A DNA stretch of 64,000 bases from Narcine bancroftii. Taxonomy: Eukaryota. Position 1 is the first letter of the stretch. Every line of letters begins with the position of its first letter. Location of the stretch: NCBI RefSeq assembly GCF_036971445.1, contig NC_091476.1, positions 108,500,001 to 108,564,000 of the forward strand. The letters run 5' to 3'. Below the pieces are notes generated by a model. The model was not told where the DNA came from. It saw nothing but the letters and a program-made list of their open reading frames with translations, and did no database searches. Positions 1 through 58,627 of the stretch are shown here, in pieces. Made by a program: the position numbers and the translations under genes.

Positions 1-277
1 TTAACCAAGGACATTTTATCATGAACTGGGTGAACAATCCATTTATCATTGTACCGCGTGAACAGAGGAATTCTCAATATCTGACTGTATATGATGTTCA
101 TTCAGCTGAAGGAACAATCAAGCTATCAAACCAGGTATCTGTCACTTGGTCTTCACTCACTTAAGTGGTTGCTGGATTCAGTAATCCACCCCACTCTATC
201 ACAGCAATTAAGGCACCAATGCTTACAGTTCAGCTCTTTTGAATTAAACATTGAACCACAAAAGACAGAACACTTAC

Positions 278-444
278 TAGATCTTCTGTGCAGTTATCAC
301 ATTCCTGATAGGTCCAGTTTAAGCTGAAGTGCTTATGGTCGACATCGTAACATGAGTTGAAGGTGCAGGTCAATTTGGCTGATGTCCCATTCAGCGTGAC
401 GACATGGGGCATGACCATGACCTCCATACCAGAGCCAAGCCCAA
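278..444 (-). CDS. SCN2B: Sodium channel beta-2 subunit, exon 2 (first half of Ig V domain); gene continues off the left edge
   Basis: 167-nt exon with tag| acceptor and |gtaagt donor. It encodes GLGSGMEVMVMPHVVTLNGTSAKLTCTFNSCYDVDHKHFSLNWTYQECDNCTEDL, matching human MEVTVP..LNGSDARLPCTFNSCY..KQFSLNWTYQECNNCSEEM, including the FNSCY cysteine. Confidence 0.95.
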
Positions 445-485
445 CTATACAGAGGAAAAGGAAGACAAGCTATCACAAACCAGAT

Positions 486-10025: not shown

Positions 10026-10255
10026 ATTTCATGAATTACTAGATTGGGGTTCAGGGAGATAAATGAGACAGAGAGATGCCAATAGATCATAAAAGTTATA
10101 GAGGGTCCAAGAGAAATCAATATATTAGATTACTTCTGGAAGGGAATGATAGTGTCATGGAGGCATCAAAGAGATTAGATTAGTCCCTGGAAGGGAATTA
10201 TTGCAAGTTAGAAAGAGATCAAAAGATCAATTATTTTCCATTCTTGATAAGAGTG

Positions 10256-10258
<3 letters not shown>

Positions 10259-10290
<32 letters not shown>
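10259..10290. repeat. (GA)n microsatellite
   Basis: Directly visible. Confidence 0.95.
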
Positions 10291-10293
<3 letters not shown>

Positions 10294-10420
10294 AAGAGGT
10301 TTGATTATTTCTGGGAGAGAAAGGTTTCAAGAGATATAATTTACTGGTTAATGAATAATTGCAGCCAATTCACATGGACCGAGGAAAGGATTTGAATTAA
10401 TGGTAATGCAGAGCTTTCAT

Positions 10421-17551: not shown

Positions 17552-18143
17552 TTTTTTTTTAAATTTTTTTTATTTTTCACACTATGAACCATACTGACCA
17601 AAATACACACAAACATTTCCCTCTTGAATATACAGTGTCATTTTCTCCCCTTTTCCCCCCTCCCTCCTTCACCCCCCTCCACACCCACTCAACGTTCAAC
17701 ATATATGATACATTAAACCCATTAAACAATGTCATCACACAATGAAAATAAACAAAAAATTTGTGTCTTCTACTTTTACATACTGGGTCAGTTCATTTCT
17801 TCTCCTTCTGTCATTTTAGGTGGTGGAGGTCTGCGGTACGGTTCCCAAATTTGTTCGAATACTGTGGTGTTATTTCTTAAATTATATGTTATTTTTTTCC
17901 AATGGAATATATTTATTTATTTCTATGCACCATTGCTGTATTCTCAGGCTATCTTCTAATTTCCAGGTTGACATAATACATTTTTTTGCTACAGCTAGGG
18001 CTATCATAATAAATCTTTTTTGTGCTCCGTCCATCGCTGGGTTTTTTGGTATGTTGCTTTTTGTGATTTTATTTAATACCTGGTTTAGGCATATTCTTGA
18101 TGTATTATTGTTGTATGATCGGATTAGGAAGCTGGTTGTCTGA
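17552..18143 (-). mobile_element. L1/Tx1-like LINE 3' fragment, internally deleted
   Basis: Poly-T at the left end (A tail on minus) and remnants of the ORF2 C-terminus (AQKRFIMIALAVAKKCIMSTWK...WEP). Confidence 0.7.
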
Positions 18144-18589
18144 TTTCTTGGTTCCTAAGAATGCATGCTAGAGACAAAGGAAGATAATGTATGAAATAAG
18201 ATAAGGCCAGTGATAATAGAATCAAATCAACTCTATCTTAAATGATGTTTGGGTTAATTATTGTTAATCACAATAAATGATCATGCACTTCCAAGACATA
18301 AATTATGAATAAATTCCAAATGACCTTGAGTAAGAAAATTGTGGAATTTTCAATTGCTACACAACTTTAGCATTGTGTGTACACTTTGAACTACAAATTA
18401 CATGATCTAAGTAGTAATCCAAGGAGCCATTTCACATTCCATTGACATCACACTATATCAATGGGAATGTGTGTAAATTGCTGCCACAAATAAATGGCTA
18501 AATTAAAAACAAACCAATTAAACTGAACAAAAAGTGAGAAACCCTTTGGTTCTGGTGATTAGATAAAGGAAGTGCAAGGACTGAAGAGT

Positions 18590-18990: not shown

Positions 18991-19222
18991 AAACATATAC
19001 CCAATTGTGCATCAAGATAGAGCTACTGTACAAAGCATGAATTTCAGTGAGACAAGCTAAGTCAGAGAAAGTTAAGTGGAATTAGCTGCCATCATAAATC
19101 CACCAGCTCTGAGTCTCTGTCCAACAATTAGAGGGTAAGAAATGTAAATTACTGCATAATCAGTTACAAGAGAATAAATGTCTCTAATTCAATAAAGCTG
19201 TTCTAACTCCACTTGTATCAAA

Positions 19223-19270
19223 TCAAATCGTTGTCACGCTATCCTTAGAAGTTTGTGGATGAGTGTTATA
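19223..19270 (-). CDS. JAML: JAML-like gene, candidate terminal coding exon (YNTHPQTSKDSVTTI*)
   Basis: ttcttcctcaag acceptor, phase 0, 15 codons plus TGA. It is the best acceptor I found downstream of the YVTM exon. Confidence 0.5.
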   Translation of the reverse strand, partial: YNTHPQTSKDSVTTI

Positions 19271-19714
19271 CTTGAGGAAGAATTCAAAATTCAGGCCAGA
19301 ACTCCAGTTCATTTTGCGGGAGTGCCTTCTTCTGCCTGAGGTGTTAAAATGATGCCCCAATTACCTTTCATTAGGGAAGAATCATTCTGAAAAGCAAGAA
19401 TTGTCTTTGGTGTTTACCTATGTATCCTCAGAATGGACAAATAAATTATTCCTCACACCTGAAATTGCAATCCCTTTTGGATGGTTCTGGAGTATCTATG
19501 ATTTAAATATTAACCACTTTGAGGAACATCTTGATTTTGCAGAAAAAAAAAGCTTTGAGGTAATTTCAATGAAATGCTTAAGATGACAGAGGTATGTAAA
19601 AAGAAAAGAAAAGCTGATCTGCATAAATTGTTGTTTAAATTCCAGAGAACATAAAGATAAGGGAGCTGAGGAATAAAAAGATACAGCATAGGAAACTTGT
19701 ATAAATTGTAATTA

Positions 19715-20464
19715 AATGGAGACAAGCTAGGGAGTGGGGAAGTGCAAATGGATCTGGGTGTACTTGTTCACCGGTCACTGAAGGCTAGCATGCAGGTTCA
19801 GAAAGCTGTGAAGAAGCCAAATGGAATGTTGGCTTTCATAAAGAGGGGATTGGAGTATAGGAACAGAGACGCCCTTCTGCAGTTATTCAGGGCCCTGGTG
19901 AGACCCCACCTGGAGTATTGCGTCCAGTTCTGGTCTCCAAACTTGAGGAAGGACATACTAGCTATAGAGGGTGTGCAGCGCAGATTTACAAGGTTAGTTC
20001 CAGGGATGGCAGGGTTGTCATATGCAGCAAGGCTAGAAAAACTGGACTTGTATCCATTGGAGTTTAGAAGGATGAGGGGGGACATGATTGAGGTATATAA
20101 AATCATCAGGGGGATAGACAAGGTGAAGTCTGATTACTTGTTCCCAATGATGGGGGAGACGAGGACTAGAGGGCATAGTTTAAGAATACAGGGTAGGCCC
20201 TTTAGGACGGAGATGAGAAAGCATTTTTTTACCCAAAGAAGTGTGAATCTGTGGAATGCTCTGCCACAGAGGGTGGTAGAGGCGGATTTGCTGACTATGT
20301 TCAAAAGAGAGTTAGATAAGACTCTTGTGGGTAACGGAGTTAAGGGTTATGGGGATAAGGCTGGAAAGGGGTACTGATGGTAATGATCAGCCATGATCTA
20401 AAATGGCGGTGCTGGCCCAACGGGCCAAATGGCCTACTCCAGCTCCTATTGTCTATTGTCTATT
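19715..20464 (+). mobile_element. CR1 LINE 3' end
   Basis: 211-aa open ORF2 C-terminus (LVRPHLEYCVQFWSP, TRGHSLR, FFTQR..NLWNALP) and a (CTATTGT)n tail. Confidence 0.92.
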
Positions 20465-20821
20465 AATGTTCATTCAACCTATTAGGCTTTTGGATTGCAC
20501 AATATAAATAATTTTGAAGAAACCTCAAGTCCATTTTGGAGAAGGAAATTTGAAGGACTCGATTGAGGTGCTAAATTTGATTGAATGAGATGGGTGAGAT
20601 TGTAAGAAAATGTACCATGGGTGAGTATGATCCATAGATAAAGTGGGTAGGTGACGTTGTGAGTCTCAGTAGGAAGGTGGGATGAGAAATATGATGGCAA
20701 TATGAGGAAATGGAATTGGAATCGTCTAATGGTCAGCATCTTTTACCAAAGTATCTACACACTGGGTGCACCCAATGGATGGATAACATCAAAGCCACCC
20801 CTGTATGTTTAACGACCTTAC

Positions 20822-20944
20822 CATTGTTACATAGATTTCATTATCATCTTTTGGTTCTTTCATTTTCTTCTCCTCCATGGGTGCATTTTCTCTGTCGCTC
20901 TGAAGTGCTAATTGGCTGGATACAGTGAAGTAACAGTCCTTTTC
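20822..20944 (-). CDS. JAML: JAML-like gene, cytoplasmic exon ending in a YxxM motif
   Basis: 123 nt, phase 0/0, encoding EKDCYFTVSSQLALQSDRENAPMEEKKMKEPKDDNEIYVTM then |gtaagg. Parallels human EKHIYSPI...EATYMTM. Confidence 0.75.
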
Positions 20945-21449
20945 CTATGAATAGATTTGATTAATTAACTGTTTTTCCTTCCTTCAAATTCTATTTTCTT
21001 CTGGCCCTGACTTGATTTGCTTCTTGAGTGAAGGCAGCAGGGGACTTGTTAGTGTGGGCCAGGGCGGTGCTGGGTCCTATCAGTAGCTTCTCCTTATGGC
21101 AGCTGGGGTCAAATTAGATGCGCACATTTGATTTATGATTATTGTGAAAACACAATGCTGGAGAAATACAGCAAATCAAACAGTTTATATAGCAAGAATA
21201 AAGATATGTACCCTTCATCAAGGTAAGAGCAAAAATAAAGTACCTGTGCACAGTTTGACCTGCTGAGTTTCTCCAGCATTGTGTTTTTACTTCAATCACA
21301 GTGTCTGCAGACGTTCATGTTTTACTCCTGTTTAAATAGATTGTAAATACAATATATAACCTCTGTTATTATTCTGATTTATATTTGAAGTATTGTCATG
21401 GGCTCATCCATACCACTTAATATTTATTCATTGAATGGCAGTCACTTGA

Positions 21450-22640
21450 ACAGAGAAACCTTGGGGTATAAGTAGATACTTCCCTGAAAACTAGAACACC
21501 GGTAGTTGCACTTTCCTTCATGAGCCATGGTATTGAACGGACACATCATGCTACAGCTGTATAAAAGTTTGGTCAGGCTGGACTTGGAAAATTATGTGTA
21601 TTATCTGGTCACCACACTGCACAAAGGTCATGGTTAAGTAGAGAGGGTGCAGAAAAGATTCACGTGGCCTGAGTTGGAGGGCTTGAGTTATTGGGAGAGT
21701 TTGGATGGAATACTATAGCACAGAAACAGGTCCTTCAGCCTAGCCCCACTAACCTGCACCCAGTCCACAGCCCTCCATACCCCTGCCATCCATGTACCTG
21801 CCCAAATTCTTCTGAAATGTTAAAATTGAGCCTGCAATCATCACTTCACCTGGCAGCTTGTTCCATACTCCCTCCACTCTCTGTGTGAAGACGACCCCTC
21901 ATGTTCCCCTTAAACTTCTCCCTTTCACCTTTAACCCATGTGCTTTGGATGGTATATCACCAATACTCAGTGGAAAAAGCCTACCTACTTTTATTCTGTA
22001 AATACCCCTCATAATTTCAAATACCTCTAACAAATCTCCCCTCATTCTCCTATGCTGCAGGGAATAAAATCCTAACCTGTTTAATCTTTCCCTGTAACTC
22101 AGTTCCTGAAGTCCCAGCAACATCCTAGTAAATCTTCTCTGCACTCCTTCAAACTTATTGACATCTTTTGTGTAGTTACGTGACCAAAACTGCACACAGT
22201 ACTCCAAATTGGGCCTCACCATGTCTTGTACAACCTTATCTACCTGTGATGCCACTTTCAGGGATGAGTTTGGGTCTATTTTTCTCTAGAGTGTTGAGGG
22301 CAGATGTGATAGACAAGTAAAATTATGAAAGACCTAGATCGGGCATATAATTAATGTCTATTGTCCAGGGAAGGGTGTCTAAATTTTCAGGACATGGGTC
22401 GAAGATGAGTGGAAGAAGGTTTAAAGGGGACAAGAGGGGTAAATTTTTCACTTGGAGTAGTTGATTTCTGGAATGAGCAGCCAGAGGAGCCGGTGGAGGC
22501 AAGAACCATATTAACATTTAAGAGGCATCTGAATGGGTACTGAGCATAGAGGGCTATGGAATTATTGCAATCAGGTGGGACTAGTATAGAGAGGCATGAT
22601 GGTCAGCAATGATGCAGTGGGCTGAAAGGCCTGTTTCTAC
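21450..22640 (+). mobile_element. Old CR1 (+) interrupted by an antisense CR1 (~21710-22260, -)
   Basis: ORF 21899-22255 (-) is a CR1 ORF2 C-terminus. The flanking + strand CR1 sequence resumes after it. Confidence 0.75.
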
Positions 22641-23621
22641 ATGAAGTAGAACTGTTGTGTTTTCTGTAGAAATTAACCATGAAGTCGCTGAATTGTTGTG
22701 GATTGGTGGATGGTGAGGCTTCAGTGAACATATGTCAAGAACACTCAAGCTTTGTTCAGATGTTGGTCAAACTTTCAGAATCTGAGAATGTGACAGGGTA
22801 TTTAATGGACCAGATTTTATGCTGAAAACCCAAAGGATCTGTTGGCTTTTACTCACTTAACTGGGTGGAAGTTTGGAACTTTTAAATTAATCTGGTCGAT
22901 TTATACCGACATCTGAATTTGTGCAGTTAAATTTGTTTACAGTTCTTTCTTTCTTTGAGTACTGTTTATAGTTAGGCCAACAAAAAAAGAATCTCAGGGC
23001 TGTATGTGATGTCATATGTACTCTGACAATAAATTTGGATTTTGACATTGAATGTTGACTTTAATTGCTGGTGAACTTCTCAGAGATCTAACAGGTCACT
23101 GGAAATTTCTCAACATTCTGCTCTTGAGGCCAGGACTTCTCCGTGTCCTGTCCCAGGTAGTCTATCAGGTTGACTGAATTCAATGGAAAGAAGTGGGTGC
23201 AGAAGAATGGTATGTAATTTCTATTAAATTTGATTTAAATTGTTTAATTTAAATTTTAAAATTTAATTAACATTTTAAAATTAGACAAACAGCATGGTAA
23301 CAGGCCCTTCTGGCCCACGAGCCTGTGCTGCCCAAGAACAGCAATGAACCTACAACCCCAGTACATTTTGAGTTAGCTGAGTATGCTTATTTACTTTTTA
23401 ATTGGTCTCTAAAGTTTTTGAATGTGACTGCTGAATACATCGACAAACATTCAATTGTAATGGCATCTTTGGCGACTAGTAGGCTTGAGGTGACAAAATC
23501 ATAGAAAGTTGGCTTGACTGGATGATGACTTACAAATGATGGTAGCTTGCCAACCATTGGAAGATCCCTCTGCATGATAATAAATCTGGGCCTAATTGAT
23601 ATGTGTTAAAACAGCCCTTAC

Positions 23622-23676
23622 CTCAATGTTTTCAAGAGTTCCAGGATCATTCCTTCTAGGTGGATCACAGTGATCA
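23622..23676 (-). CDS. JAML: JAML-like gene, first cytoplasmic exon
   Basis: 55 nt, phase 2/0, with a strong ttttttcttccag acceptor and GAG|gtaagg donor. Encodes SDHCDPPRRNDPGTLENIE. Confidence 0.7.
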
Positions 23677-23763
23677 CTGGAAGAAAAAAGTTCAGCTTTG
23701 TACATTGTTTAAAAAGGTGGAATTATGCAATTGTGTTAAAATTTCTCTCCTGAAGGAGTATAC

Positions 23764-23917
23764 CTCTGACACTTTGGTGAATATTTCCAAATGAATACAA
23801 GGATTATAGATAATGCAATGAAGAAGGTGCAAATTCCGGCTGTTGTATACATGATAATATTCTTTGGTATCGCATCCTTGGACTCAGGAATCTGTAGGGC
23901 TCGCGAGCGATTGCTAT
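23764..23917 (-). CDS. JAML: JAML-like gene, stalk plus transmembrane exon
   Basis: 154 nt, phase 1/2 (ccctacag| ... AG|gtatac), encoding DSNRSRALQIPESKDAIPKNIIMYTTAGICTFFIALSIILVFIWKYSPKCQ. Confidence 0.8.
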
Positions 23918-24239
23918 CTGTAGGGATAAGAACTGCCAGTAATCAAAAATCCTTGAAATTTATCACATGGAGGAGCTATTGAGCCAATCATATTGACGGT
24001 GCCCAAGATACTTGGATGTAAAAGGAGCAAAAGTCCTCCAGAGGAAACCAGTGATTCAAGCTGCGCTGTGTAAATGTGAGCCTGCATTTTCCAATGTCAC
24101 TTCATTATAACATGGAGGAACCACTGTACATTCATGATTCCTGTAATTTGGAGACTTTAACCTAAGGATCTTTAATTGCCCGAGGGAATGTGTAAAATGA
24201 TGCAAGCCATCCTGGATGACACCCCAACCACTTTATTCA

Positions 24240-25860
24240 TCTGGCAGAATGCTCCTCCTGTCATAGGTGGGAACTTAGAAATCGGATGGTTTCCCTGATG
24301 ACTACACCTGCAAGAAGTGTAATCAGCTCCTGAAAGACTGTATAAAGGAATTGGAACTGAGGATCTACTGGGAGGCTGAGCATGTCATAGATAAGGCTTT
24401 TGAGTAGGCAGTTACACCAAAGAGTGCATGATTCATTTAGTAGATGGATGAACACCAAGAGAAGAAAGGGGAAAAAGAAGGCAGTTCAATCTCACCCTGT
24501 GGCCATTCCCATCAGCAACAAATATATCCCTTTGGTTACTGCTGAGAGGAGATGTCCTATCTGGTTAGCTATGAGCCTTTGAAGAGAAGAATTAAGTTAG
24601 GTAGACGAATAGTCATGGGGGTCTCAATAGTTCAGGGAAAAGATAGATTCTGCAGCCACAAAAGAGACACCAAGATAGTGTGTTGCCTCCTGGATGTTCA
24701 GGTCCAAGATATCTCTGAGTGGTTGCAGAATGTTCTTAAAGGGGAGGATGAGCAGCCAAAGGTCATGGAAGATTTTGGTAAGAATGATATATGCAAGAGT
24801 GGGGTAGAGGTCCTGCAAAATAATTTTAGAAAGTTAGGAAAGAGGCTGAAGACCAGGACCTCTAAGGTAATAATCTCTGGATTACTCCCAGTGCCACGAG
24901 CTGGGAAGGTCAGAACAGGAAAATGTTGCAGACAAATGAATGGCTGAGGAGATGATGATGGGGGAAAACCAGGTTAGGACTGGATCTCAAGAGAGAGAAT
25001 TTGTAGAATGCCTACAAGATGGCTTTTTAGAGCAACTTGTTGATGAACCCACTAAGGGGTCGACTGAACTGGATTGGGTGTTGTGTAATGCACTAGAGGT
25101 GAATAGAGAGCTTAGAGTAAAGGGACCATTAGGGGGCAGTTATCACAATATGATTGAGTTCAATTTAAGATTTATCAAGGAGAAATGAAGGTCAGATGAA
25201 TCGATATTTCAATACAGTAAAGGGTATTACAGTGGCCAAAGTGGATTGAAAGAGATAACAAGTAGGGAAGATGGCAGAACAGTAATGAGGAAGGTCCAGA
25301 AGAAATACATAGCAAAAAAGAGGAAATATTCAAATAGAAAAACGTTACAACTGTGGCTGTCAAGGGAAGTCAAAGCTGATGACAAAGCAAAAGAGAGCAC
25401 ATGACAAGATAGGCCAACACCAGAATGGTTTCCTTAAGGGAAAATTTTGTTTGACAAGCCTCTTGGAATTTTTTTAAGAAGAACCAAGTGGGCTTGGTGG
25501 TTGTGATGCAGTGGATGTTATGTATTTGGATTTTCAGAAGGCCTTTGACAAGCTGCCACAGATGAGACTACTTAACAAGAGAAGAGTCCATGGTTTTACA
25601 GGAAACATTCTAGCGTGAGAAGAGCATTGGCTGATTGACAGGAAGCAGAGAGTCCAAATACAGGGATCATATTCTGGTTGGCTGCCAGTGCTATTCCACA
25701 TATGTCAATATTGGGGGTGCTTCTTTTTACCTTGTATATCAATGACTTAAATATTTTGAATGTTGAAAGGCATGGACAGAGTAGATGTAGAAAAGTTGGT
25801 GGGAGAGGAGGACAAGAAGACACAAATTCATGGTTGGAGTCCACTTAGAACAGACATACG
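24240..25860 (+). mobile_element. Internally deleted CR1 with ORF1 SGNH-esterase, endonuclease and RT remnants
   Basis: ORF 24552-24947 resembles CR1 ORF1 esterase. ORF 24940-25188 is endonuclease (PTKGSTELDWVL..LGGSYHNMIEF). VDVMYLDFQKAFDK occurs at ~25510. Confidence 0.8.
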
Positions 25861-27016
25861 GAGGAATTGCCTTTTTTTTTCAAATGGCATCGTTTCATAT
25901 GCCTTGAATTTGGAAACACAAAGGTAGCTTAAGGAGGTAGATGAATTACACAAATGTATTTTTTTAAATATTTAACATAATTTTGAGATAGCAGTCTTAT
26001 GAATAAAAAAGATTTTATGATCTTCAAACGTTGATGGAAGACCATTAATATATATGTCAGGAAGTTGTGCAAATCTTTTCCCATTCATTTCATTGAACAG
26101 AATCCCAATTGCATAATCTCTTCTGATGTAGCTTCCTTTTTTGGAATTTCAATCATCCATACCATTCTGACCTTTAAATTGGTTCTTCTTCATCCAGTTG
26201 GATCTCACTTACTTTCTTTGGAACCCCAGTCACACAATTCTATATCATTCACTCTCATGTGCTAGATTTCCAATAGACTAAAACCTTCAAATATTTGAGT
26301 GCATAACTTTAAGAGAGTGGGAAAGTTTACAGGCTATTTATGACACATTTCTTTTTTATGCAGGCGAGTAGAATGTGTTTCCAGGAGGTGGTGGAAGCAG
26401 ATGCAATGGGAAGCATTTAGACAGACAGGGAATGGAAGGATAGATGTGCAGTTTAAATTGGCATTATGGTCAGCACAGACTTTGTGGGCCAAAGAGCCTA
26501 GTCCTGTGTTTTATTGCTCTATGCTCCTGTGTTACTATTTGCATATGATGTACAGGCTCTCAATGATCTGCATACACTTCCCACTCACTCCCACTCTACA
26601 TTTTCCCAATGGACCAATTTTATCTCACTCATTTATATTGAATACAAAAATAATCTCTTCCTGTTCACTTCCACTAACAAAAATTATTGGATTGATTCCT
26701 TCCCATTCACCCCCATTGTACAGAATCCCAATGGCCCAAAGTACGTTTTCATTGCCTTACGATTTGTATTGTAGAATTTCCCAGAAACAAATTTGTTTGA
26801 TTTTATTCTCGTTGCTTCCAGTAGATTAATTCCTTCCCATTCACTTATTGTATGGACTCCCAAAAGACCTATTCCTCCCCATTGAGTTTGTTTGTATTGA
26901 ATTGTTAGACAACAATCACTGCTTTGCACTTGGGTCCTACAATAGAGAATTCAAAAGCATTGAGCTACTTTATATTCACTCCAACTGTTTAGAATTTCCA
27001 TGGTTGTGTTTATTAC

Positions 27017-27233
27017 CTTCACACCAAACCATGAGAAGGGTCTTGTTTTTGTGGACTTTGTTCCACAATCTAGGGATTCGCAAATCGCAGATGAAGTTCC
27101 CACTGTCGGTGCATTTCACATTGGTTATGAGAATGGAGCCATTGTTTCTCTGGATGTCACCTACCCACTTCAACCTTTGGGCAAACTTGCTGTCCTCTAC
27201 CACCACACTGAGGTTTCGGTAGTAAAAGAAAAT
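27017..27233 (-). CDS. JAML: JAML-like gene, Ig V domain second half
   Basis: 217-nt exon, phase 0/1, encoding IFFYYRNLSV..FAQRLKWVGDIQRNNGSILITNVKCTDSGNFICDLRIP..VHKNKTLLMVWCE. Compare human JAML VLYYYSNLSV..FQNRVHLMGDILCNDGSLLLQDVQEADQGTYICEIRL. The gene is next to SCN2B, as in human 11q23. Confidence 0.85.
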
Positions 27234-27749
27234 CTGTTGGGGGGAATAAAAGAATAAAAAGAATTTAAAGGGAACAGTTAAACAAAAAGTATTTCTGTAT
27301 TTTCCCGATGGATACTCCATTCTTTGGATGTAGAGTTGAATCCTCCCTACCCTATCCTTTAAAAAATTTCCTGATAATGTTCTTGTTTAATGTGCAATCC
27401 TGCAGGTGCTCTATGTATTGTTAATTTTTAATATCCTTTAAGATGTTGGTGAGCAGCATCAGTGGTACACGGCACAGTCTTCCAGAATTTAGACCCTGCA
27501 ATTCTGTAGGATGGAGATGTACTGCCAAATCAGGATCATGTTTGACTTGGAAGGGAACATGGAGGTGATGGCAAACCCTTGCTCCTGCTATGATTTCTTC
27601 CTTGATGGTAGATGTTGGAGGGTATTATGGAAGCAACCCTAGTAAGTTGCACGAGCAATCCCATGGCTGATGTACACAGGTGGTTATAGAAGTTGCGTGT
27701 TTTCCTGCAAACTTGCTAACTCATTCCTCCACTTCCTTATTTGTATTTT

Positions 27750-28060
27750 GAGATTTTTTTTTAGATGAGATGTTAAAGCAATATGGGCTCTCTGAGGTGG
27801 ATGAGGATATCTTAGTAGCAACTGAAGAAGGAAAAGTGGAGTGTTGTTGGTATCCTAGTCAATATTAATCTCTCATTCAATTTTACTAAAAATGAAGCAT
27901 TTGGTCATTACAAAGTTACTGCTTTTATAAGCTTGCTGCTTGCAAACTGGTGCACTTCCTATATTACAACCACATCTGCAGATCAGAAGCATTTTGTAGG
28001 CTGTAAAGTGCTTCAGGATGGCTTTAACAGTGTGTGAAAGATCCTGTATAAACACACTTC
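27750..28060 (+). mobile_element. Deu-domain SINE remnant (SacSINE/AmnSINE-like); similar remnant at ~19290-19480
   Basis: GATGAGATGTTAAA core and GGCTGTAAAGTGCTTCAGGATG tail resemble the DeuSINE consensus as I recall it. Confidence 0.5.
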
Positions 28061-28173
28061 TTTATTCAATATCCAGCATTACAAGCTTGTGTGGGGATGG
28101 GGTGGAGGTGGGTTTTGGGGGAAATGTGTCGCCTGAGGATTGGCAGAAAGTATCTGGATATACATACACTCAC

Positions 28174-28343
28174 TGAATTTTCTTCCTTATCATTGTAAGG
28201 GGTGTAGAACCATTCCAGCTTGATGTTGTGCATTTGAATGTGTTCTTGGTAGTCGAACATACAATCCAACCGTAGATCTACTCCCTGTTTCACAACCAAA
28301 TACTCCGGGGTAGAGATACCAACAGGTGAGATTGACCAAATAT
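28174..28343 (-). CDS. JAML: JAML-like gene, Ig V domain first half
   Basis: 170-nt exon (tag| ... |gtgagt) encoding DIWSISPVGISTPEYLVVKQGVDLRLDCMFDYQEHIQMHNIKLEWFYTPYNDKEENS, with B-strand Cys and C-strand Trp. Confidence 0.8.
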
Positions 28344-28789
28344 CTAGAATGTAGAAAGAAACCATCTGAACTTGAACAGTGATAAATATCTCAGTATTTC
28401 AAGTGAGTTGGGTTAATTTCCACCAATGATCTTATTGATATTGCACCAAGTATTGGTTATTATATATATAGTGCACTCAAACTTCCCAATTAGATTTCAA
28501 CTGGTAAATTGATATTGGAACTCTCTGACTCTAAAGTCCAAAACATGGTTAGCTTCCATCTGTTTCCATTTCCAGATACCTGCTTCCCATATTTATGCCT
28601 ATATTCCTGAATTAATGGTCTATAATTTATTCTTAAATATTTTCATTAACTTCTCTATTCAATCTGGTTAGTAATGCAAATCCAGATTATTTGTTAATAT
28701 CAGACTGTTTAATTTAATCTTGTGGATTTTAATATTACTAACATATCTATTATATGGTATTTTGTGAGGCACCTGTGAAAGACCCTAAA

Positions 28790-29285
28790 GACCATGCTGA
28801 TATGCCTGTCCATGGCCTCATGCACTGCCACCCATAAAATGGAGGAGCAACACCAAATATTCCATCTGGGCACTCTCCAATCGAATGGCTTTAACCTCGA
28901 CTTCTCTGGTTTCTGCAACCCCATTCCCCATTCTCCCTCTCTTCTCTGTCCCTGGCTCTCTTTTCCTCCAATTTCCTCCACCCCTTTCCTCTCTAATCAC
29001 AGAGCTAAACTCCCTCCCCCATTTTCTCTTGTGCCCTCCCTCCCTTATCTACCTATTACTTGTTGCCTATGGGACTGTTCTCCTCCCCCTGCCCCTTCAC
29101 CCCAAACACCATTTTATTCAGGTGCTTGCCTACATTTTGCTCGGACCTTGATGAAGGGCTCAAGCTCGAAATATTGGTTACGTATCTTTATAGCTATATA
29201 AAGTACACTATTTGACCTGCTGAGTTTCTCCAGCATTGTGTTTTTAACTTCAATCACGGTGTCTGCAGAGTTTCATGTTTCACTC
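28790..29285 (+). mobile_element. Penelope-like element 3' fragment
   Basis: GIY-YIG C-terminal remnant HKMEEQHQIFHLGTLQSNGFNLDFSGF plus the terminal GACCTGCTGAGTTTCTCCAGCA motif. Confidence 0.7.
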
Positions 29286-31355
29286 TATAATTAACTTCAA
29301 AAATATATCAAGTTAGTTAACATAATATACCATCGACAAGTCAATATTAACTTTGATTTACTTTTTTCTTAATTGAGAATCACTTCAGATTGACCATGCC
29401 AGCAGTATCCGAAATATCAGTAAAGGTAGATTTTGACATCCTTTTCCATAGACTATAAATTTAGTTTCTAAACAAGGCCTCCTTCAAAGAAACATTATCT
29501 CCCATTGATTTTAGTAAGCAAAATCTGGCAGGATATCAAATCAGTTTTGCTTCCAGTCATGTCAGTGTTTCCCCATTATAAGTTCAGTTACATGGATCCC
29601 TGCCATTAAAGAGCACCTGCAATCATTAAGGACCTATACCATCCAGGATATGCTCTTTTCTTGCTGCTACTATTAGGCAAGAGGTATAGGTAACACAAGA
29701 CTTGAACCACCAGGTTCAGGAACAGTTGCTACCCCTCCACCATCAGACTCCTAAACAGCAAATTCAATCAGAGACACATTTAAAGACTCTTGCTTAGTAT
29801 ATTATTTATCATTGAATATCTATTTTCTGTACTGCAGTTTGTTTTACACTCTTCTTGTTACATTTCTCTCATTTCTACACGTACCTTTTCTTGAGTACAG
29901 TTTTTCACTACTGATAAGTAGAAATTCCGCCTCGCCCGCAGGAAAAAGAATCTTAGGTTTGTATGTTCTCTGATAATAAATCTGAATTTTTGTAACTGGA
30001 ATTATGAGTGAGATAGGAAAGGTAGAGGGGGAATAATTTTGTTTTCCAAATTGGTTTATCTTAAACAAGATGCCATATGTTTAAGATGAGAGTAAGTACA
30101 TTTAAAAGGGGATGTTCCCCCCCACAGAGAGAATGGTTGGAAGCTGGATCATCTACCTGAGGAAGAGCTGGGTGCAGATAATCTCACAGCATTTAAGAAG
30201 TATCTAAATAAGTGCTTGAATCAAAACTGTACAGGGTGTAGGTTAATGGGATGTAAATTGGGCAGCACTGACTTGTAGGGCTGCATTGGCCTGTTACAAT
30301 GCTGAATGTCAACATTAAACATTTAAATTTAAAAATCACTAAGGCATGGGACACTATGGCCCTGATACAGATGAATGGAATTGGTATAGATAGATGCAAC
30401 AGTCAGTGGACATGAGGTGGGCCAAACCAGGTGTTTCTGTGCTGTAAGTCTATGATTCTATCAATAACAAAACATTATCTTATCCATTTACTCATTTATA
30501 TGCGGGAACTTGTTGTGCGGAAATAGATTATAACAGTAAATGGATTCTTGGGGTTGTGAGATGTGATACATTAATGCAAGTTCATTCTTTCTTTTACTTT
30601 TGCCTGGGCTGTAATCAGTGCAGACTTGTATATTAAAGCTGAGATTTCTCAGCTCTGCATGGCTTCACCTGCCACGGTCTTGCTAAACTTCCTATTCTCT
30701 TGTGCTTGATAGCACACAGGCAACCCTTTTCTTCAGTTGTTGACCTGAAACATTAACCCTGTTTCTCTTTTTGCAGATATTGCCTGACCCGCTGTGTATT
30801 TCCAGAATTTTCTGTTTTTAATTTCAGATTTCCAATAACTACAGTTTATTTTCCAACCTATTTCTCCCTCTTATTTCTGGGTAGGCTGAATTGGCTACCA
30901 ACCTGTAGCTGAGAGGCTTCATCCCCTTAGCCGGTTATTTGAAACTGGAGGGGGGGGGGGGTGGTTATTGAATCCTTCAATAAAATAAAGAGCTGACGAA
31001 GTTGAGCAAGACATGTTGTTCATTAGGCAGCCCTCCATTACAGTCTGCACTAAACTAAACCCAAAACTAATGAGTGAGTAAAAAATCCTAGAACAATGAT
31101 GAGGAAAAGCTGAAATTGTTGGAATTTCTTGCATGGAAGATGGCTCACAATCATGCAAGACTACATGCAATCATGTTGACTACATGCAAGAATGAGGTTG
31201 ATGATGTTTGAGTATTATGGGACCAAAGGGATGAAGTGCATACGTGGAAAAAGACATGATATTGATTACTGATAATGAGTTTACGATAATATACCTAAAG
31301 TGAATGGTAAAACTGGTCCCTGGAGCCATTGGGCATGCTTCTGTTCCTATTTCAC

Positions 31356-32365
31356 TGATACAGGCCCAGAGGACCCAAACCCCAGCAGCAATAGAAATTC
31401 ACCAAGACAAATGGTTACTGAAGCAAAAATTGCTTTTAATTTTATTTAAACATACAAACAGGATCAAACTTTAACTTATTACTATTAATTTAACCTAACT
31501 TCTAAGTCCATGTGTATGTAATGTGTATATGTTCAGGAAAGTTCTTTTAATTCACAGTCTAACCTCACTTCTCACTCCTCCAAGTTCACCGGTATCAGGC
31601 AATTCTTATACTGTGCACAGAATTTAACATTTATGAATTTTAATCAGACTCTAGTGCTGAAAGTTAAATGGTTACCACTAAGGAAGGTTCTTGTTGGTTT
31701 CAGAGAGAGATTCGTTGCTCGTTGGACACACACACAAACACACAAACTGATTTACTTTCATTGGTCACTTCTGTGCCTTGCCAAAAAAACTTGCCCCAAC
31801 AGGGTTTTCTAAATGATCATCTCTTCTTCTAGGTCACCACAGAGTTTCTCTTGTCTCCCTTATTTCAGGTGAAACACTCTAGCCAACCATTTCCTCTTGT
31901 AAGGACTACAAGGGTTTTTCAACACGCTGAACTCACAACCCGTCTTCAAAATGGGGTTTTCAACCAAGCTTGCCATGTTGCAGACTCAAAACCCACTGCA
32001 GGTCATTTTTTTCTCTCTTTTCAGAGAAGAATCTTGTCTGATCTTTTTTCTCTCTCTCTGCCTGCAAAACCACATGACCTTTCTTAGAACAGCAAACTGC
32101 AAGAAGACAGATTGCTGGCACCGGAATCAGTTTCTGCCTGGTCATCTGTTGCTTTCAAAACAATAATCCATTTACTCCATATCATCAGTCCAATTAACAC
32201 CTACTTGTGAAGTCTCCATAGGCATTCTTCAAAGTTTCTGTAAAGTCACTGTGGACACGATGTCTCTCCTTATGCATTGCTCTTGCGTTTTAAATGAGAT
32301 GTCTTTTGTGAAGTGGTACTGTCTTTCTTTTAAAGACATATTAATATATAATATACCTCATCACA
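31356..32365 (-). mobile_element. Solo LTR of the Gmr1-like Gypsy family
   Basis: TG...CA ends, 4-bp TSD TCAC on both sides, and homology to the LTRs at 33879 and 40914. Confidence 0.88.
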
Positions 32366-32832
32366 TCACCAACTCTTCTCTGCTGTTTTAATGTTAAAAC
32401 TTCCAAAGAATCCCTTGTTTACATGCCAATTCAAATACAACTTGCACGTGTTTCACTATTCAAGACATTCAAATGTTAGATATAACCAAACCTACCTTTA
32501 TGGCATCGCTCAAATGATTAGAGAATGGTGCCATAGAATTGTTTCGAGGAATGTGTCTTGCAGCCTAGTGGTTATCATAACCTCAACTATGTTCCTTACC
32601 AAATTAGGGTTGCTGGTTTCCAAGATTTAAATATTAGTCTTCAGAAAGTACACTTGAAAAAATTAGGTTTCTTTAATTTTTCATTCATTCAAAACTTATA
32701 AAAATGTGGATTTTTATAGTGAAAAGCTGTTTGAGTATGAGGATCAACCAAGCAAATGTTGGCATCTCCACTTCACAGAGCAAACCTAGAATGATCCAAT
32801 GGCTGAATAAAAAGATTAATGCCTGAACCTAC

Positions 32833-32896
32833 CAAGAATATGGTCAAGTATCTGTCCTAACCCAATCACAATGGTCACCTTCAATCTCATCGGCAT
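32833..32896 (-). CDS. JAML: JAML-like gene, candidate signal-peptide exon (MPMRLKVTIVIGLGQILDHIL)
   Basis: ATG-led and moderately hydrophobic. Its G|gtaggt phase-1 donor fits the 28343 acceptor. Loosely similar to human MFCPLKLILLPVLLD. Confidence 0.45.
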
Positions 32897-33878
32897 TATA
32901 CTGCTTGGTCTTGCGGTCCAAGCAGTCACAGATATGTTCATAATTCTTCTTTTAAAGATGTTTGCCTGGTCTCTGTGCCTCCATGCCAAGAACATGGTGA
33001 GAATCCCTGCTCACTGTTGGAGACATTGCAGGAATGAATCACTTGGGGCTTAGTCTGGAGAGTAAGGTCTGGCACTGGACAGGACTGGCCAAGTGGTGTG
33101 GGGCACAGGATGTGACCTCTCATCTCACCTCAGTCAAGCCCACCTCCAGTCCCTAAGGCAACCTCAACTAGGGATGGTTTATTGCTGGTGGTATCCTAGC
33201 AGAAGACATGGAATGCACAGGCCTGCACAATTAGCAGAACACTATTACAGCACCAGTAATTTGGGTTCAAAACCAGTGCTTTCTGAAAGGAGTTTGTACG
33301 TTCTCTATATGACTTGCATGGGCTTTCTCTCGGTGCTGCAGTTTCCTCCCACCCTCCAAGAATGTTCAAGGTTGGGAGGTTAATTGGGTGGCATGAGTTT
33401 CATGGGTCAGAATAGCTGTATCCTTTTTTTAAAAAAACTGGCACAGTAAAGCTGTCAATAACACACTGATGCATCTCCCTAATAATAACATCATAATAAC
33501 CCTATTAATGTTGATTCCATTATTACTCAGGTTCCTGGCAATCCATCGCTAAGCAAGATACCAGTGTTCAGCTCAGCACTCCAATATTCATGTTCTTAAC
33601 AAACAGTTCACATACCATTGAATATGAGAAATATCAGGAGAAAGTGCAGTCTTCTTCCTCTCTTCATTGTCTAGAGATAGCACAAAGAATTGCAGTTAGT
33701 AGTGTTACCATATAACCATATAACCATTTACGGAGCAGAAACAGGCCATGTTGGCCTTTCTAGTCCGCACCGGTTCACTGATTTGTAAAAAGTTCACCAG
33801 GCTTTGGTGTTTGAAAGATAAATGTTTACCGCTCAGGAAGGTTCTTGTAAAGTTTGCAGAGAGTGTATGTTTTGTTTT

Positions 33879-53465: not shown

Positions 53466-53915
53466 TCATTCTTCTTTCTGGGCTCTCTTGTTGGAAGAGT
53501 GAGCATCAGTGGAAGCTCCATCAAACAGCTTTCCCTTGGTCTTCAGGATCCTCAGGTAATCCTGTGGCCCTTTGCCTTCCAAGCCTGAGGGGTACTTGTA
53601 GGAGCCTCCAATGCGGTCCCACAATGTGAAGTACTGTCCATAGTTATAGTCAAAGTACAGATGGTGATCTGTGTGATGAGCTGAGCCATTAATGACATTC
53701 TCGAGAACTCTGGGCACTCTGTAGTCACCGTCATGAATGGACACAGTCCAGATGTTGACAAAGATGTAGAGTCCCAGGTAGACCACCTTGTGCAGTGGGA
53801 AGAGGAATGGATAGATGTGATAAGGGATGCTCTGTAGGAAACCGTCCACTGGGTGAAAAGCATGACTTGCAAATGGTGTCGGAATCTTCCAAATATGATG
53901 AGGTTTGTGTAAGTG
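53466..53915 (-). CDS. SC5D: SC5D last coding exon
   Basis: HLHKPHH...[14 protein letters not shown]...[28 protein letters not shown], containing His boxes 2 and 3. Total CDS is 894 nt = 297 aa. Confidence 0.96.
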
Positions 53916-54261
53916 CTGCAAACAATACCAGTTGTTACAAGAATTCACACATTAAATGCTCACAATAAAAAATGTGTTTCTTGTGACACTCTTAAAGTCT
54001 ACCCTCCAGACCATTAATCACTTGTAGTAAAGCAAAGTTAGTTGAAATAATAAAATGACACCCTGGTGTTTTATTATTTAAACAGAATGTACAAGGGACA
54101 TGAAGTCAAGAATATCCTTTCAGGCATGCATTCAATGATAATTTTCAAAAAGGGAACTGGCTTTATAGATAGATAAAAGTCAGAATTTGGAGTCCAGAGG
54201 GTAGCAGCAGCATTTGGAGGTTTGAAAGCAACTGAAAAGCCTATAAAGCATAGGCAAAAGA

Positions 54262-54350
54262 GAAATATGCTGGACTATGTAATGAGATAGCAACTAGCCA
54301 AATCGGAAATGTGCTGGACTATGTAATGAGATAGCAACTAGCCAAATCGG
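54262..54350. repeat. 44-bp tandem duplication in an SC5D intron
   Basis: GAAAT(A/G)TGCTGGACTATGTAATGAGATAGCAACTAGCCAAATCG occurs twice. Confidence 0.9.
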
Positions 54351-54389
54351 ATTACTTTGATTCCAATGACAAACCTCTGAAATGTACAT

Positions 54390-54965
54390 AGAGTATAAAA
54401 GTGAGGAAGTCACCCTGCTGCTATACAAAGCTTTGGTTGTACCACACTAGGAGTACTGAGAGTTTAGAATACTCCAAATGTAGTCATCCTTACTTGGAAA
54501 GTGTAGAAAAGAGATTTAGCAGGATTTGCCTGGATTAGAGGGTGTTAGCAATGGGGAGAGACTGGACAAACTAAGGTTGTTTTCTCTGAAGTGGAAGCCG
54601 AGGTGAGACCTGATAGCTTTATAGAATTATGAGAGCCATTGATAGGGTAGGCAGTTGGAAAATTTTTGCCCAGGGCAAGTTATGTCACATACTCAAGGAC
54701 ATACATTTAAAGTAGGGAGGGGATAGTTTAAAGAAGATTTTGGGGCAATTTTTTTTTTACAACATAAGAGTGGCAGGTACTCCAAATGGCCTGTCAGGCG
54801 TAGTGTGCAAGCACAAAAGCAGTACCATTTAAGCAGCCTCTAGACAGATACATGAATATGCAGGGAATAAAGGGATATGTATCATATGCAAGCAGCAGAG
54901 AATTTATTTAACATGCATCAAGTTTGGGGCAAAGATATGGGCCGAAGAGTCTGTTTCTGTCCTAT
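54390..54965 (+). mobile_element. Decayed CR1 3' fragment in an SC5D intron
   Basis: LYKALVVPH*EY remnant and GGGCCGAAGAGTCTGTTTCTGT tail. Confidence 0.65.
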
Positions 54966-55036
54966 AAATCAACCAATGGCCATCCCAAGATCTATTCAAC
55001 TAAATAAAACTAGTCATCTAAAGCCAATATTCTTAC

Positions 55037-55137
55037 TTTATAGATGAGCCTATGATGAAGAATCCGATGGATCCAGTAGATACACATGTCTGTGAAGAAG
55101 AGGAAGGAGATCATACTGAGCACCACTCCAAACCAAC
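55037..55137 (-). CDS. SC5D: SC5D coding exon 3
   Basis: 101 nt, GWFGVVLSMISFLFFTDMCIYWIHRILHHRLIYK, containing the first His box. Confidence 0.95.
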
Positions 55138-56003
55138 CTGAAAAGAAAGGTTGTAGGCTCAGTATACATTTTACTCAACCGTGGTCCATCATTACATAAC
55201 ATCAGTGTCTTGGACTCAGATTTGGCAAGTGAGTGGGCGTTAAGAACTTTCCTTATGGATGAAAGTCTCCTTTTTGATACCCATAGCCATTTTAACTTAT
55301 TCCTTGCAGTTACACTAACTTGCATTTTAACAATGCAGTATTCATTCTCAAACATTCAAGGATGCTTTCAAGACCATGATAAAACAGAGTTTGACAGAAG
55401 CAGGAAAGGTAACATGTTCTAACATTTCAACAAGAAGGCAGGGTTATTTTGAACATTAAACAGAGTGGCTTAAAGAAAATCCAGATCTCAGAGCATTCAC
55501 AGGTCGAATCAAATCTAACTCAGGGTCATACAAGAAAATAGGAGCAGGAGTAGATCATCTGATCTTTCAACATGATCATACCTGACATTCTCCTGTTCTC
55601 CACTCCTCTTCAGTGTCAGTTCCCCATAGTCTTTAATTACCCAATTTTTAACAATTTATCTACATCCTCTTGAAATACCTCTAATCTCCACAACTTGTGA
55701 GAGTAGAGCTCTGTCATCCTTTGTGTGGATGAAATCCATACATCTCAGTTCGAAAACTGTTGCTATGCCTTGTACCCCATCCCCTTATTTGATGCTCTGC
55801 CCCTGATGAAAAACTAGCCCCTCAACTAAACCAACAAGCTCAGCATTGTAACTGTCAACTTTTGCCTTGCTGTTAAAGGATGAATTTCAACAGTGCAACG
55901 AGATGAAGTAAAAGTGGTAAACATCCAGCTCCAAGTGGAAAATCCTCTAGATTAGCCCATATCCCAGTTCTGTTGCAGGCTTTTTCTAAAACCACAAACT
56001 TAC

Positions 56004-56136
56004 CATAAGGAGAATCCTCGATATTATCATACAGTTTGCTGTAGCCACGGATTTCTGCAAAGAAAAGTCCAACTGTTGGAATACTTATCCATGGAAGTGA
56101 TTGCATCGCATACTTTATTTCCCGTTGCACTTGATT
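56004..56136 (-). CDS. SC5D: SC5D coding exon 2
   Basis: 133 nt, NQVQREIKYAMQSLPWISIPTVGLFFAEIRGYSKLYDNIEDSPY, canonical splice sites. Confidence 0.95.
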
Positions 56137-57050
56137 CTACAGGAGAGAGAAAACAAGTTCATCACAGGCTGCTCCCATATTACTGCAATTGGGTAATGGA
56201 TATTTTCCCTTAGAGAAATCATTACCCAATAATTTGAGAGATGAAATAACATTCACTTTCATAGAATTTATGGGTAAAAAGTAAATAAAATGACAACTTT
56301 TTTACCCAACAGATAATCATACACAGTTAATGCACCTTCAGTAATGTAAAATTGCAATGTAGACCATTTTCTAGGAATGCAAGCCCTCCATAATGCAGGA
56401 ATTGCCCATCATTGTTTCAATAACCACACTAAACCTACTTAAGTTGACAGCTTCCAAAAAATTCACAATGACCCAAGCAATTCAAAAATATTTTCAAATT
56501 GTGGGTCAGGGTAAGGTTCTCTCTCTCTATGGAATTAGGTATGGTCTCATCCTGTTTCAACAATTAGGAACAGTCTTTTCACATTTAAATTTGATTCTCA
56601 GGTTTACTTTCTATATTTTTGCACATCTTTGCAACTACAGAAACTATTAATACACTAATTAATCTGCAGATGGATCTTTACACCTATTAATCTTCAAATA
56701 AGCAAAACCATAACTTTTAATATCTCAACTTATGTCCTATAACACTCACAAAATAAAGATAGACAAATTTAAATAGCATCACAGGTGAGGTAACACAGAC
56801 AAAAGGTTAGAAATTTGCTGGAGCAAGGAGTGGAAGAATTGCTCCACGTTTTCAAATCACATTTGAAATGAGAAAGAGACCCCTTAAAGCACAACTTAGA
56901 CAGCAAATTACACTGGATCAGAAAATATAATTGAGGGACATGGGTGGTCTAACACCCACACACAGTGTGGACAATACCCAGTAGTCTGAAATCAAATCTC
57001 CATTTCCTGCACAAAAATTTTCATGTAACTTTCATGAATATAACACTTAC

Positions 57051-57260
57051 CGGCAAATATTGTGGGTGGTTCTTCAGTGCATGATCAAAAATAAAATAAT
57101 AGCTCAATGTTCCAAAACAGAAATATATAGCTGTAGCTCCAAGATTAGTTACAACCAGGAGGCTAATTAGCTGGCGTAGAGTGTCCTGCTCTGGCCAGGA
57201 GCTGGGGTATACATATGGTGTGAAAATGTAGTAGTCTGCATAATGTAATACGATGTCCAT
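57051..57260 (-). CDS. SC5D: Lathosterol oxidase (sterol C5-desaturase), first coding exon
   Basis: 210 nt, MDIVLHYADYYIFTPYVYPSSWPEQDTLRQLISLL...HPQYLP|gtaagt, with Kozak GCCATGG and an acceptor at 57269-57270. Confidence 0.95.
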
Positions 57261-58627
57261 GGCATTACCTGCAAATCAAAAGAAGGTCTCAGTAGTTAAT
57301 TAGGTACTGAGTCAATCCACAATGGAGATTCCAGGTATCACACCTGTTTCAGAACGTTGACCATGGTTTACTCAAATGACTTGATCGGAATACTGTATAA
57401 CATACCCTCTGCATTTCAACTCAATTACTTGTTCATTTCAGACACACTCATCCACATCGGTTTTGATAAAGACTGTGACTTTATCATTTACAGTTTCCTT
57501 GTATAAAATGACAAAAGAAAATTCAGACCAAAGAGTTTAAGCTAACTGTGAACAATTCCATTACTTTACCAAAACTTGCAAAATTTACAACTGTCAAGAG
57601 GCATTTTTTGCCTGGAAGCTGTTAATAAAACACTGCAGAATGTCACACATGCACAATAGCAAGATTGATCTTATCTGTAGGATTTCACTTAAGGTTAGCA
57701 ATTTAAAAAGAATGGAAGCTATGTCTCAATTACAGCTCATGCAGGTTACCCAAGTTTTTCTCACAATGAAAAATGCAGTAAGGACAATTCTACTAAATGA
57801 CAATTTTTAAATTATGATGGGTGATCTACATTGACTATCATGCAAATTAACGATATTACTTTGCACAATAGATTGCACTGTCCTGATGGCAACACTTTTT
57901 AAATAACTAGTAATCCAGACATATTAATTCAAATCCTGAATAGATGTGATACATATATTTATTTAATCACATCATCTGAAAAAAAAGTCTTGCATTTGCA
58001 ACCATTGCACTAATGTCATTGACTTTTAAAAACTTTCCAAAAAGGGTTTTAAACAATAACTTTTAACATGCACCACTTGGATTCCTGCACGACAGTTCAT
58101 CTTGCAAACCCTCCTCACGAGGGCAGAGAACATGAGTGCTTATAATTGACTGAAACATTGCCTCTGACTGAGCTGGTCAAGTCATGAGAAATAGCTGTCA
58201 GATTGGGCCAGAGGTAAACCAACGAGGTAAACTTCATTCTCATCAATGCATCTAGTGCAGATATAGTCCTCCTTTTCAACACTGGTAGGAACAATAACCA
58301 GTCTTTATAGACATCATAGTGAAGACATCTTTCAGCACATAGGACTGGACTGATCAGATCTAGCAGATAAAAACTAGACATCCATTAGATGCCGTGAGCC
58401 ATCAGCAGCAAAGTTTAGTCAATCATAATCTTCACTATTACAATCAAGTCAAGGACCCACCCTGGAGTACAGAAGGACATGTTTGATGCAGCACTTCACA
58501 ATGTTGTAAATGAGGACTACCTAGTAAAAATTGCATCCAAGAGAGATACACAACTTCTCCTTGGTGCAAAACAGACACACAAACAGACATAACACACATA
58601 CAGACGAAAAATACATGCAGGGCACAT

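Follow-up and report, generated by a model that had tools for sequence, protein, structure and literature searches.

The locus considered here raises the question of whether a receptor gene encoding a single immunoglobulin (Ig) domain is the junctional adhesion molecule-like gene JAML (AMICA1), which in placental mammals has two V domains, and, if it is, which of the two forms came first. The gene lies on the minus strand of a 64,000-nucleotide stretch of the ray Narcine bancroftii (contig NC_091476.1, positions 108,500,001 to 108,564,000), hereafter the window, whose numbering is used below. An original prediction, made from the sequence alone, had described a JAML-like receptor with one V domain and a YxxM tail. 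The ray gene itself is ordinary and already annotated; the useful result is the evolutionary polarity, with the one-domain state very probably ancestral, together with the age of the tail motif YxTM.

When RefSeq proteins were mapped back to the window they gave a spliced minus-strand gene of seven coding exons spanning 33667-18105. Each intron has GT-AG ends, and joining the frames reproduces RefSeq proteins P0001/P0008 letter for letter. The spliced product, which comprises a signal peptide, a single V domain, a transmembrane helix and a tail with YVTM, is RefSeq XP_069752197/6, named "junctional adhesion molecule-like", and its V exon matches an NCBI protein of that name at 100% identity. 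The parts of the gene are as follows.

33616..33667, minus strand: coding part of exon 1, with start codon and signal peptide; 52 nt, ending in phase 1 with a GT donor; exact match to residues 1-17 of P0001/P0008.
28168..28343, minus strand: exon 2, which encodes the V domain's first half and has tandem donors at 28174 (isoform X2, 277 residues) and 28168 (isoform X1, 279 residues).
28210..28221, minus strand: codons K59-L-E-W62 of the C strand, at the position of human JAML K54.
27017..27233, minus strand: exon 3, second half of the V domain, with JAML-type FYYxNLSV and without an NPPD motif.
23764..23917, minus strand: exon 4, stalk and transmembrane helix (residues 165-191 in the model); ends in phase 2; joined from exon 3 in contigs.
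23622..23676, minus strand: exon 5, juxtamembrane tail; 55 nt; in three contigs a stretch of 56 letters separating exon 4 from exon 6 fits it.
20822..20944, minus strand: exon 6, the signalling cassette, with Y221-x-T-V near its start and YVTM (20833-20822) at its end; covered by spliced contigs.
18105..18167, minus strand: coding part of exon 7 to the stop, with H right after YVTM; exact match to residues 258-277 of P0001; kept in orthologues.

The original prediction was of seven phase-compatible exons encoding about 276 residues. Its layout and the five inner exons (28343-28174, 27233-27017, 23917-23764, 23676-23622 and 20944-20822, all with GT-AG ends and correct phases) hold. A model running from an ATG at 32896 to a TGA at 19223 through these five exons is exactly 276 residues long, from which we infer that it was the one proposed; exons 1 (33667-33616) and 7 (18167-18105) of the RefSeq model fall outside 19223..32896. 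As the RefSeq C-terminal exon is conserved in shark and ray orthologues and the proposed version occurs in none, both proposed end exons are probably wrong. The bins containing them lack read cover (19000-19473 in three of four sequencing runs, 32746-33200 in all four) despite contigs that continue past exons 2 and 6, but this is a weak hint only, and the case against them is made by the RefSeq match and conservation rather than by read cover. The accompanying concern that annotation may miss the exons proved unfounded, since the spliced product equals the RefSeq JAML-named proteins. The two GT donors of exon 2 (28168/28174) are 6 nt apart and differ by two residues in the C-C' region; in all four runs the contigs listed are spliced at 28168, which gives the longer form.

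The transcript evidence consists of contigs from four public runs of one study, taken to be RNA by a guess of library type; the table of read joints in these runs was filled by repeats. V exon 3 was joined straight to transmembrane exon 4 in spliced contigs of two of the four runs (X3 record 17, X4 record 23), and in each of these a single contig carried exon 2, exon 3, exon 4, the 56-letter piece fitting exon 5, and exon 6. The remaining two runs show joins 2-3 and 4-6. Junctions 1-2 and 6-7 were not seen directly in the contigs of the four runs. A scan with profiles of the V halves (six frames, with X for stops) turned up no half of a V exon from 27017 to 23917, in agreement with the original statement that no intact second Ig exon pair lies there; the same profiles recovered the V exons of MPZL2 (E 5e-4 and 1e-8) and SCN2B (0.027), and on MPZL3 the second half (9e-7), with the first half at only 6.7. 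Pfam finds a single V-set domain in the ray protein, the AlphaFold model has one confident domain, a transmembrane helix and a disordered tail, and four skate proteins from Logan contigs of less than 1.9 kb hold the entire one-domain frame. Word-based homologue searches (lengths up to 557 residues, in one case up to 2000) returned only elasmobranchs, none of them two-domain, by a method that misses distant relatives. The ray gene therefore lacks the two tandem V domains of placental-type JAML on the evidence of contigs, profile scan and Pfam, and its single V-set domain also sets it apart from classical JAM-A/B/C, a family defined by V plus C2 domains and a C-terminal PDZ-binding motif in the available parts of PMC2600739 and PMC12237671.

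Is the gene JAML? Its intron phases, 1,0,1,2,0,0, are those of human JAML (1,0,1,[0,1],2,0,0; PMC10506104 supplements) minus the exon pair of the second V domain (D2). According to the same supplements the phases are 1,0,1,2,0 in human MPZ, MPZL1 and MPZL3, 1,0,1,2 in MPZL2 and 1,0,1 in SCN2B, so that the first three have one tail exon fewer than JAML and the ray gene, and the others fewer still. The JAML pattern of three tail exons with the last intron after YxxM is present in the ray: in both genes that intron falls directly after the M of YxTM (YMTM in human, YVTM in ray), the exon after it begins with H, and YxxV/I opens the penultimate one. None of 17 elasmobranch species has the NPPD that follows the second cysteine in ray MPZ, MPZL2, MPZL3 and SCN2B, and [KR][VIL][DE]W at the C strand, the human JAML K54 site, is present in all 17. 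Ray MPZ, MPZL2, MPZL3, SCN2B and SCN4B exist as separate genes.

The neighbourhood agrees. SCN4B, SCN2B and ray JAML lie in a row, all on the minus strand, with the next SCN2B exon and then SCN4B located below the window.

230..469, minus strand: first V exon of SCN2B (frame), E 3e-19 to SCN2B; directly downstream of ray JAML.
53466..57275, minus strand: a sterol desaturase-type gene, presumably SC5D, upstream of ray JAML; Pfam FA_hydroxylase E 1.4e-19 for its last exon.

We take the human order to be SCN4B-SCN2B-JAML-MPZL3-MPZL2. In the ray, MPZL3 and MPZL2 are separate genes 6 Mb from JAML, so MPZL3 is not adjacent, and no JAML-like V exon was found in the 140 kb below ray MPZL3. This split of the beta-subunit/MPZL cluster suggests a rearrangement between JAML and MPZL3. 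MPZL3, MPZL2 and a CD3E-type Ig exon occupy 102.54-102.60 Mb and SCN4B-SCN2B-JAML 108.50-108.56 Mb of the same contig, and a Vps10-domain exon lies between the two blocks at 106.6 Mb.

A phylogeny of V domains was built with IQ-TREE from 66 of 133 domains (123 columns, no SCN1B/3B rows labelled). The relatives came from a full profile search in which 20 of 150 listed matches were identified by name. A quick 133-row tree, rooted on a CAR-like domain, placed ray-finned fish rows at the base; this outgroup was then dropped, 66 redundant rows were removed (65 paralogue domains and one bird JAML fragment), and the root was placed on SCN2B/4B by our own choice. It can be seen in the resulting tree that the ray domain belongs to a JAML clade (100/98) of 12 elasmobranch, five ray-finned fish and eight one-domain sarcopterygian rows together with eight placental domains, and that the 33 MPZ/MPZL/SCNB rows, the separate ray genes among them, stand apart from it. 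Forcing the elasmobranchs together with MPZ/MPZL was rejected by the approximately unbiased (AU) test (p-AU 0.008). A two-V lamprey protein (P0143) scored too low for placement. Four lines of evidence, namely gene structure, motifs, synteny and tree, identify the ray gene at the sequence level as a JAML orthologue, as had been proposed. With human and mouse JAML (NP_001091996, PDB 3MJ6/3MJ7) it has in common the intron phases, the last intron after YxTM, the YxxV/I opening of the penultimate exon, the K-x-D/E-W C strand, FYYxNLSV, the place beside SCN2B and the tree clade; it differs in its one V domain, YVTM without PxxP, extra invariant C115/C145, and MPZL3/MPZL2 6 Mb off.

Only seven of the 86 tail columns of the 17-sequence alignment are invariant, all of them in exon 6: Y221, V224, E252 and YVTM. 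YxxM is present in the tails of all 17 elasmobranch species and in 23 of 26 vertebrate proteins, the three misses being partial records, so that all 23 full tails from rays to mammals have it, each with acidic residues ahead of the tyrosine. As a sequence, the YxTM motif thus dates to the last common ancestor of jawed vertebrates, as far back as had been suspected. The SH2 domains of p85 prefer YxxM and tolerate V, and pY-V-x-M fits this preference. Mammalian JAML binds p85 through its tail motif (PMC7982423, PMC8404475), and in gamma-delta T cells PI3K signalling is set off when CAR binds it (PMC8404475). By analogy, ligand binding through the C-strand face (K59-x-E61) would cluster the ray receptor, a kinase would phosphorylate Y254, and p85 SH2 domains would bind pYVTM and turn on PI3K-AKT, a course of events that we rate as moderately probable; the second conserved tyrosine, Y221-x-T-V, might bind another SH2 protein or a sorting adaptor. 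Overall, we think it quite probable that the ray orthologue, in the one-V form of most jawed vertebrates, is a leukocyte adhesion and costimulatory receptor whose YVTM is predicted to recruit PI3K. As to variation in the cassette, exon 6 (phase 0-0) appears doubled in the automated gene models of Heptranchias and Mustelus and skipped in that of a Cetorhinus isoform, and lungfish JAML has two YxTM copies.

A number of observations pull the other way. Per-domain scores against the ray V domain in a PDB search were 49.1 bits for MPZ, 42.1 for mouse JAML D1 and 32.0 for D2, the summed score favouring mouse JAML only because two domains add up. With a 17-sequence profile D1 and MPZ tied at 66.1 bits, with D2 at 45.3. 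The predicted fold is nearer MPZ (Z 20.1, root-mean-square deviation 2.0, 121 aligned) than JAML (Z 15.8, 2.1, 111 aligned). The p85 site of mammalian JAML is given in the available text of PMC7982423 as YMxMxPxxP, and PxxP after YxxM is absent from all 17 elasmobranchs and the other one-domain forms; of the proteins examined, just the two-domain ones have it. Ray-finned fish, lungfish and coelacanth have no lysine at the C-strand site; CAR binding has been assigned to the membrane-proximal domain (D2) of human JAML, as cited in PMC2600739; and the ray-finned fish fall outside sharks plus sarcopterygians (94/86), contradicting the species tree, so that the deep JAML branches are unreliable or hide paralogy. 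We conclude that V-domain similarity and fold searches alone cannot separate JAML from MPZ. The ESM Atlas does not discriminate either, placing a JAML-named cluster first (0.98) and MPZL2 and P0 at 0.97.

One rival possibility is that the gene is a JAML orthologue but that its one-domain form acts like myelin P0, by homophilic adhesion or with a non-CAR ligand, CAR binding having arrived with the mammalian two-domain form. Besides the D2 assignment, its loop lengths as well as its predicted fold are nearest MPZ and MPZL1, and its V exon sizes (170/217) are close to those of MPZ (167/214), unlike human JAML D1 (155/226). However, the highest identity among the structural matches listed is to JAML D1 (31%), and K-x-E/D is kept in all 17 elasmobranchs at the site where, in human JAML, K54D abolishes dimerisation and CAR adhesion (PMC2600739). 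The ray genome also has a CAR-family gene, with a V exon pair and a C2 exon, at C16:21785230-21789171 (best PDB match CAR, E 1e-8); it may be CXADR or a paralogue, and a pattern for a CAR tail motif had no match in the ray genome. In the 3MJ7 structure the contact is reportedly D1-D1. We therefore regard the P0-like behaviour as unlikely, though it deserves to be taken seriously, and a CAR-family protein, argued from mammals, is in our judgement the likeliest ligand of ray JAML, though at about even odds. Prediction of a homodimer of the ray V domain scored 0.01, which is no evidence either way. Exon 3 (27017-27233) encodes two further cysteines, C115 and C145, that all 17 aligned elasmobranch sequences share and that human JAML and MPZ lack at these positions; a second disulfide may link them at the V-domain base.

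It is also conceivable that YVTM and YxTV serve mainly as sorting signals of the YxxPhi type, read by clathrin adaptors, or as phosphatase docking sites, and not as a PI3K switch. Both motifs fit YxxPhi, CTLA-4 YVKM binds AP-2 as well as p85, and the PxxP that follows the mammalian motif is absent. On the other hand, YxxPhi would tolerate L, I, F or V where the 23 full tails all have Met at +3, and the acidic residues before the tyrosine are likewise kept in every one of them, which makes this explanation rather improbable.

Turning to the polarity of the domain change, one V domain was found in all 17 shark and ray species and in each of the 21 non-placental proteins examined (ray, shark, paddlefish, bowfin, gar, char, a coelacanth fragment, lungfish, turtle, crocodile, gharial, chicken, turkey, zebra finch and platypus), as against two in all five placental or placental-like proteins, isoforms counted. 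Chimaera, amphibian, squamate and marsupial JAML were not identified among the 150 listed matches, 20 of which were looked up by name, and these are gaps rather than absences. Placental D1 and D2 form one clade (99/96) that is sister to platypus (96/82), which makes a late duplication likely. AU tests, whose constraint groups were named after the quick tree had been seen, rejected trees in which D2 branches outside all jawed-vertebrate rows (p 0.0005), outside the amniotes (0.004) or outside a group of platypus and D1 (0.014). Given these rejections, and since at least five lineages would otherwise each have had to lose the domain, the doubling is likely mammalian and later than the monotremes, with the reservations that an old duplication could look young through D1/D2 gene conversion and that the mammals sampled are platypus and placentals. 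We conclude that, very probably, the one-domain state is ancestral and the two placental V domains go back to a phase 1-0-1 exon pair that was duplicated within the gene once platypus had split off.

The original wording, "ancestral or reduced", can therefore be narrowed to its first term. A reduced ray gene, with D2 lost from a two-domain ancestor, would fit the better score of the ray domain with D1 than with D2 in both searches above, and D1/D2 gene conversion could make an old duplication look young. It would nevertheless require D2 to have been lost independently in elasmobranchs, ray-finned fish, lungfish, sauropsids and platypus, it is rejected by the AU tests, and no exon remnant was found in the intron 27017-23917; we consider it very unlikely. 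That the gene is instead a distinct MPZ/MPZL-family paralogue of sharks and rays with a convergent YxxM tail, for which the naming of just 3 of 17 elasmobranch orthologues as JAML and the tied single-domain profile scores could be cited, is largely refuted by the missing NPPD, the JAML-specific extra tail exon and intron position, and the AU test (p 0.008).

Nor is a one-domain JAML the oddity that had been implied. The already-named JAML proteins of chicken (XP_015153742), turtle, crocodile, lungfish and platypus (XP_007655660) have the ray architecture of signal peptide, one V domain, transmembrane helix and two-tyrosine tail with YxTM, the sauropsid tails running further past YxTM than that of the ray, and this makes the two-domain placental form the exception. 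The form of JAML usual in vertebrates is thus that with a single antibody-like domain, and the two-domain human form is likely late. The "uncharacterized" paddlefish, bowfin, gar and salmonid proteins (P0137, P0079, P0154 and P0087) are probable JAML orthologues: like the ray protein they have one V domain, tail motifs of the DCYVTL and IYxTMH types and a place in the JAML clade, and unlike it the paddlefish, bowfin and gar V domains are shorter and the whole fish set lacks the C-strand lysine and is not named JAML. MPZ (P0), MPZL1-3 and SCN2B/4B belong with the ray protein in one V-set subfamily, with V over a phase 1-0-1 exon pair and the nearest predicted fold, but most of them have NPPD following the second cysteine, their tail exons are fewer and YxxM is lacking. 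NCBI names the 17 elasmobranch orthologues JAML in three cases, P0-like in seven, MPZL2/3 in four, SCN2B-like in one and uncharacterised in two. The paddlefish JAML-like accession is consecutive with an MPZL3 accession, and the contigs of the two are equal in length, a hint of kept synteny. Two MPZL1-like proteins (P0029 and P0033) have two near-identical V domains each, through independent internal duplications or assembly artefacts.

The rest of the window contains retroelement pieces at 9182-11986 (+), 19712-20377 (+), 21899-22285 (-), 34983-37645 (-), 39257-40477 (-) and 62952-63786 (+), among them two near-identical reverse-transcriptase 3' ends of long interspersed nuclear elements (RVT_1 E 7e-35). 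We take other pieces to be CR1-like fragments in introns, broken gag/pol of a long terminal repeat element and L1-like ORF1 pieces.

In the literature, JAML is counted in the beta-subunit/MPZ subfamily in the available part of PMC10506104, and in that of PMC1971062 the synteny of the beta-subunit cluster is treated without JAML. PMC12237671 describes JAML as two-domain, and the word 'evolution' is absent from its available text; the 'marine vertebrates' row in the table of the survey PMC7916592 lists no JAML. Our search, whose coverage left out most subscription journals, found nothing on JAML domain evolution, which is weak evidence of novelty.

The picture of JAML as a two-Ig, JAM-like protein is reversed by this analysis: vertebrates normally have one domain, and the human form is likely a late duplication. 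Of 17 shark genes, 14 carry a wrong name and are identified as JAML, as are, probably, the unnamed fish genes; this offers a candidate costimulatory marker of T and natural killer cells in sharks and fish. The natural one-domain forms also allow a clean test of which domain binds CAR. More tentatively, and on balance with some doubt, JAML could be a costimulatory receptor with one domain that is found throughout gnathostomes and matches T-cell receptors in age, in which the penultimate exon is a self-contained two-tyrosine cassette, duplicated or skipped in some shark models, that would tune PI3K output; ray-finned fish would keep unrecognised orthologues, and the second Ig domain and PxxP would be placental additions that may have changed ligand or avidity. 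If this is true, single-domain CAR binding would be directly testable in chicken, fish or shark.

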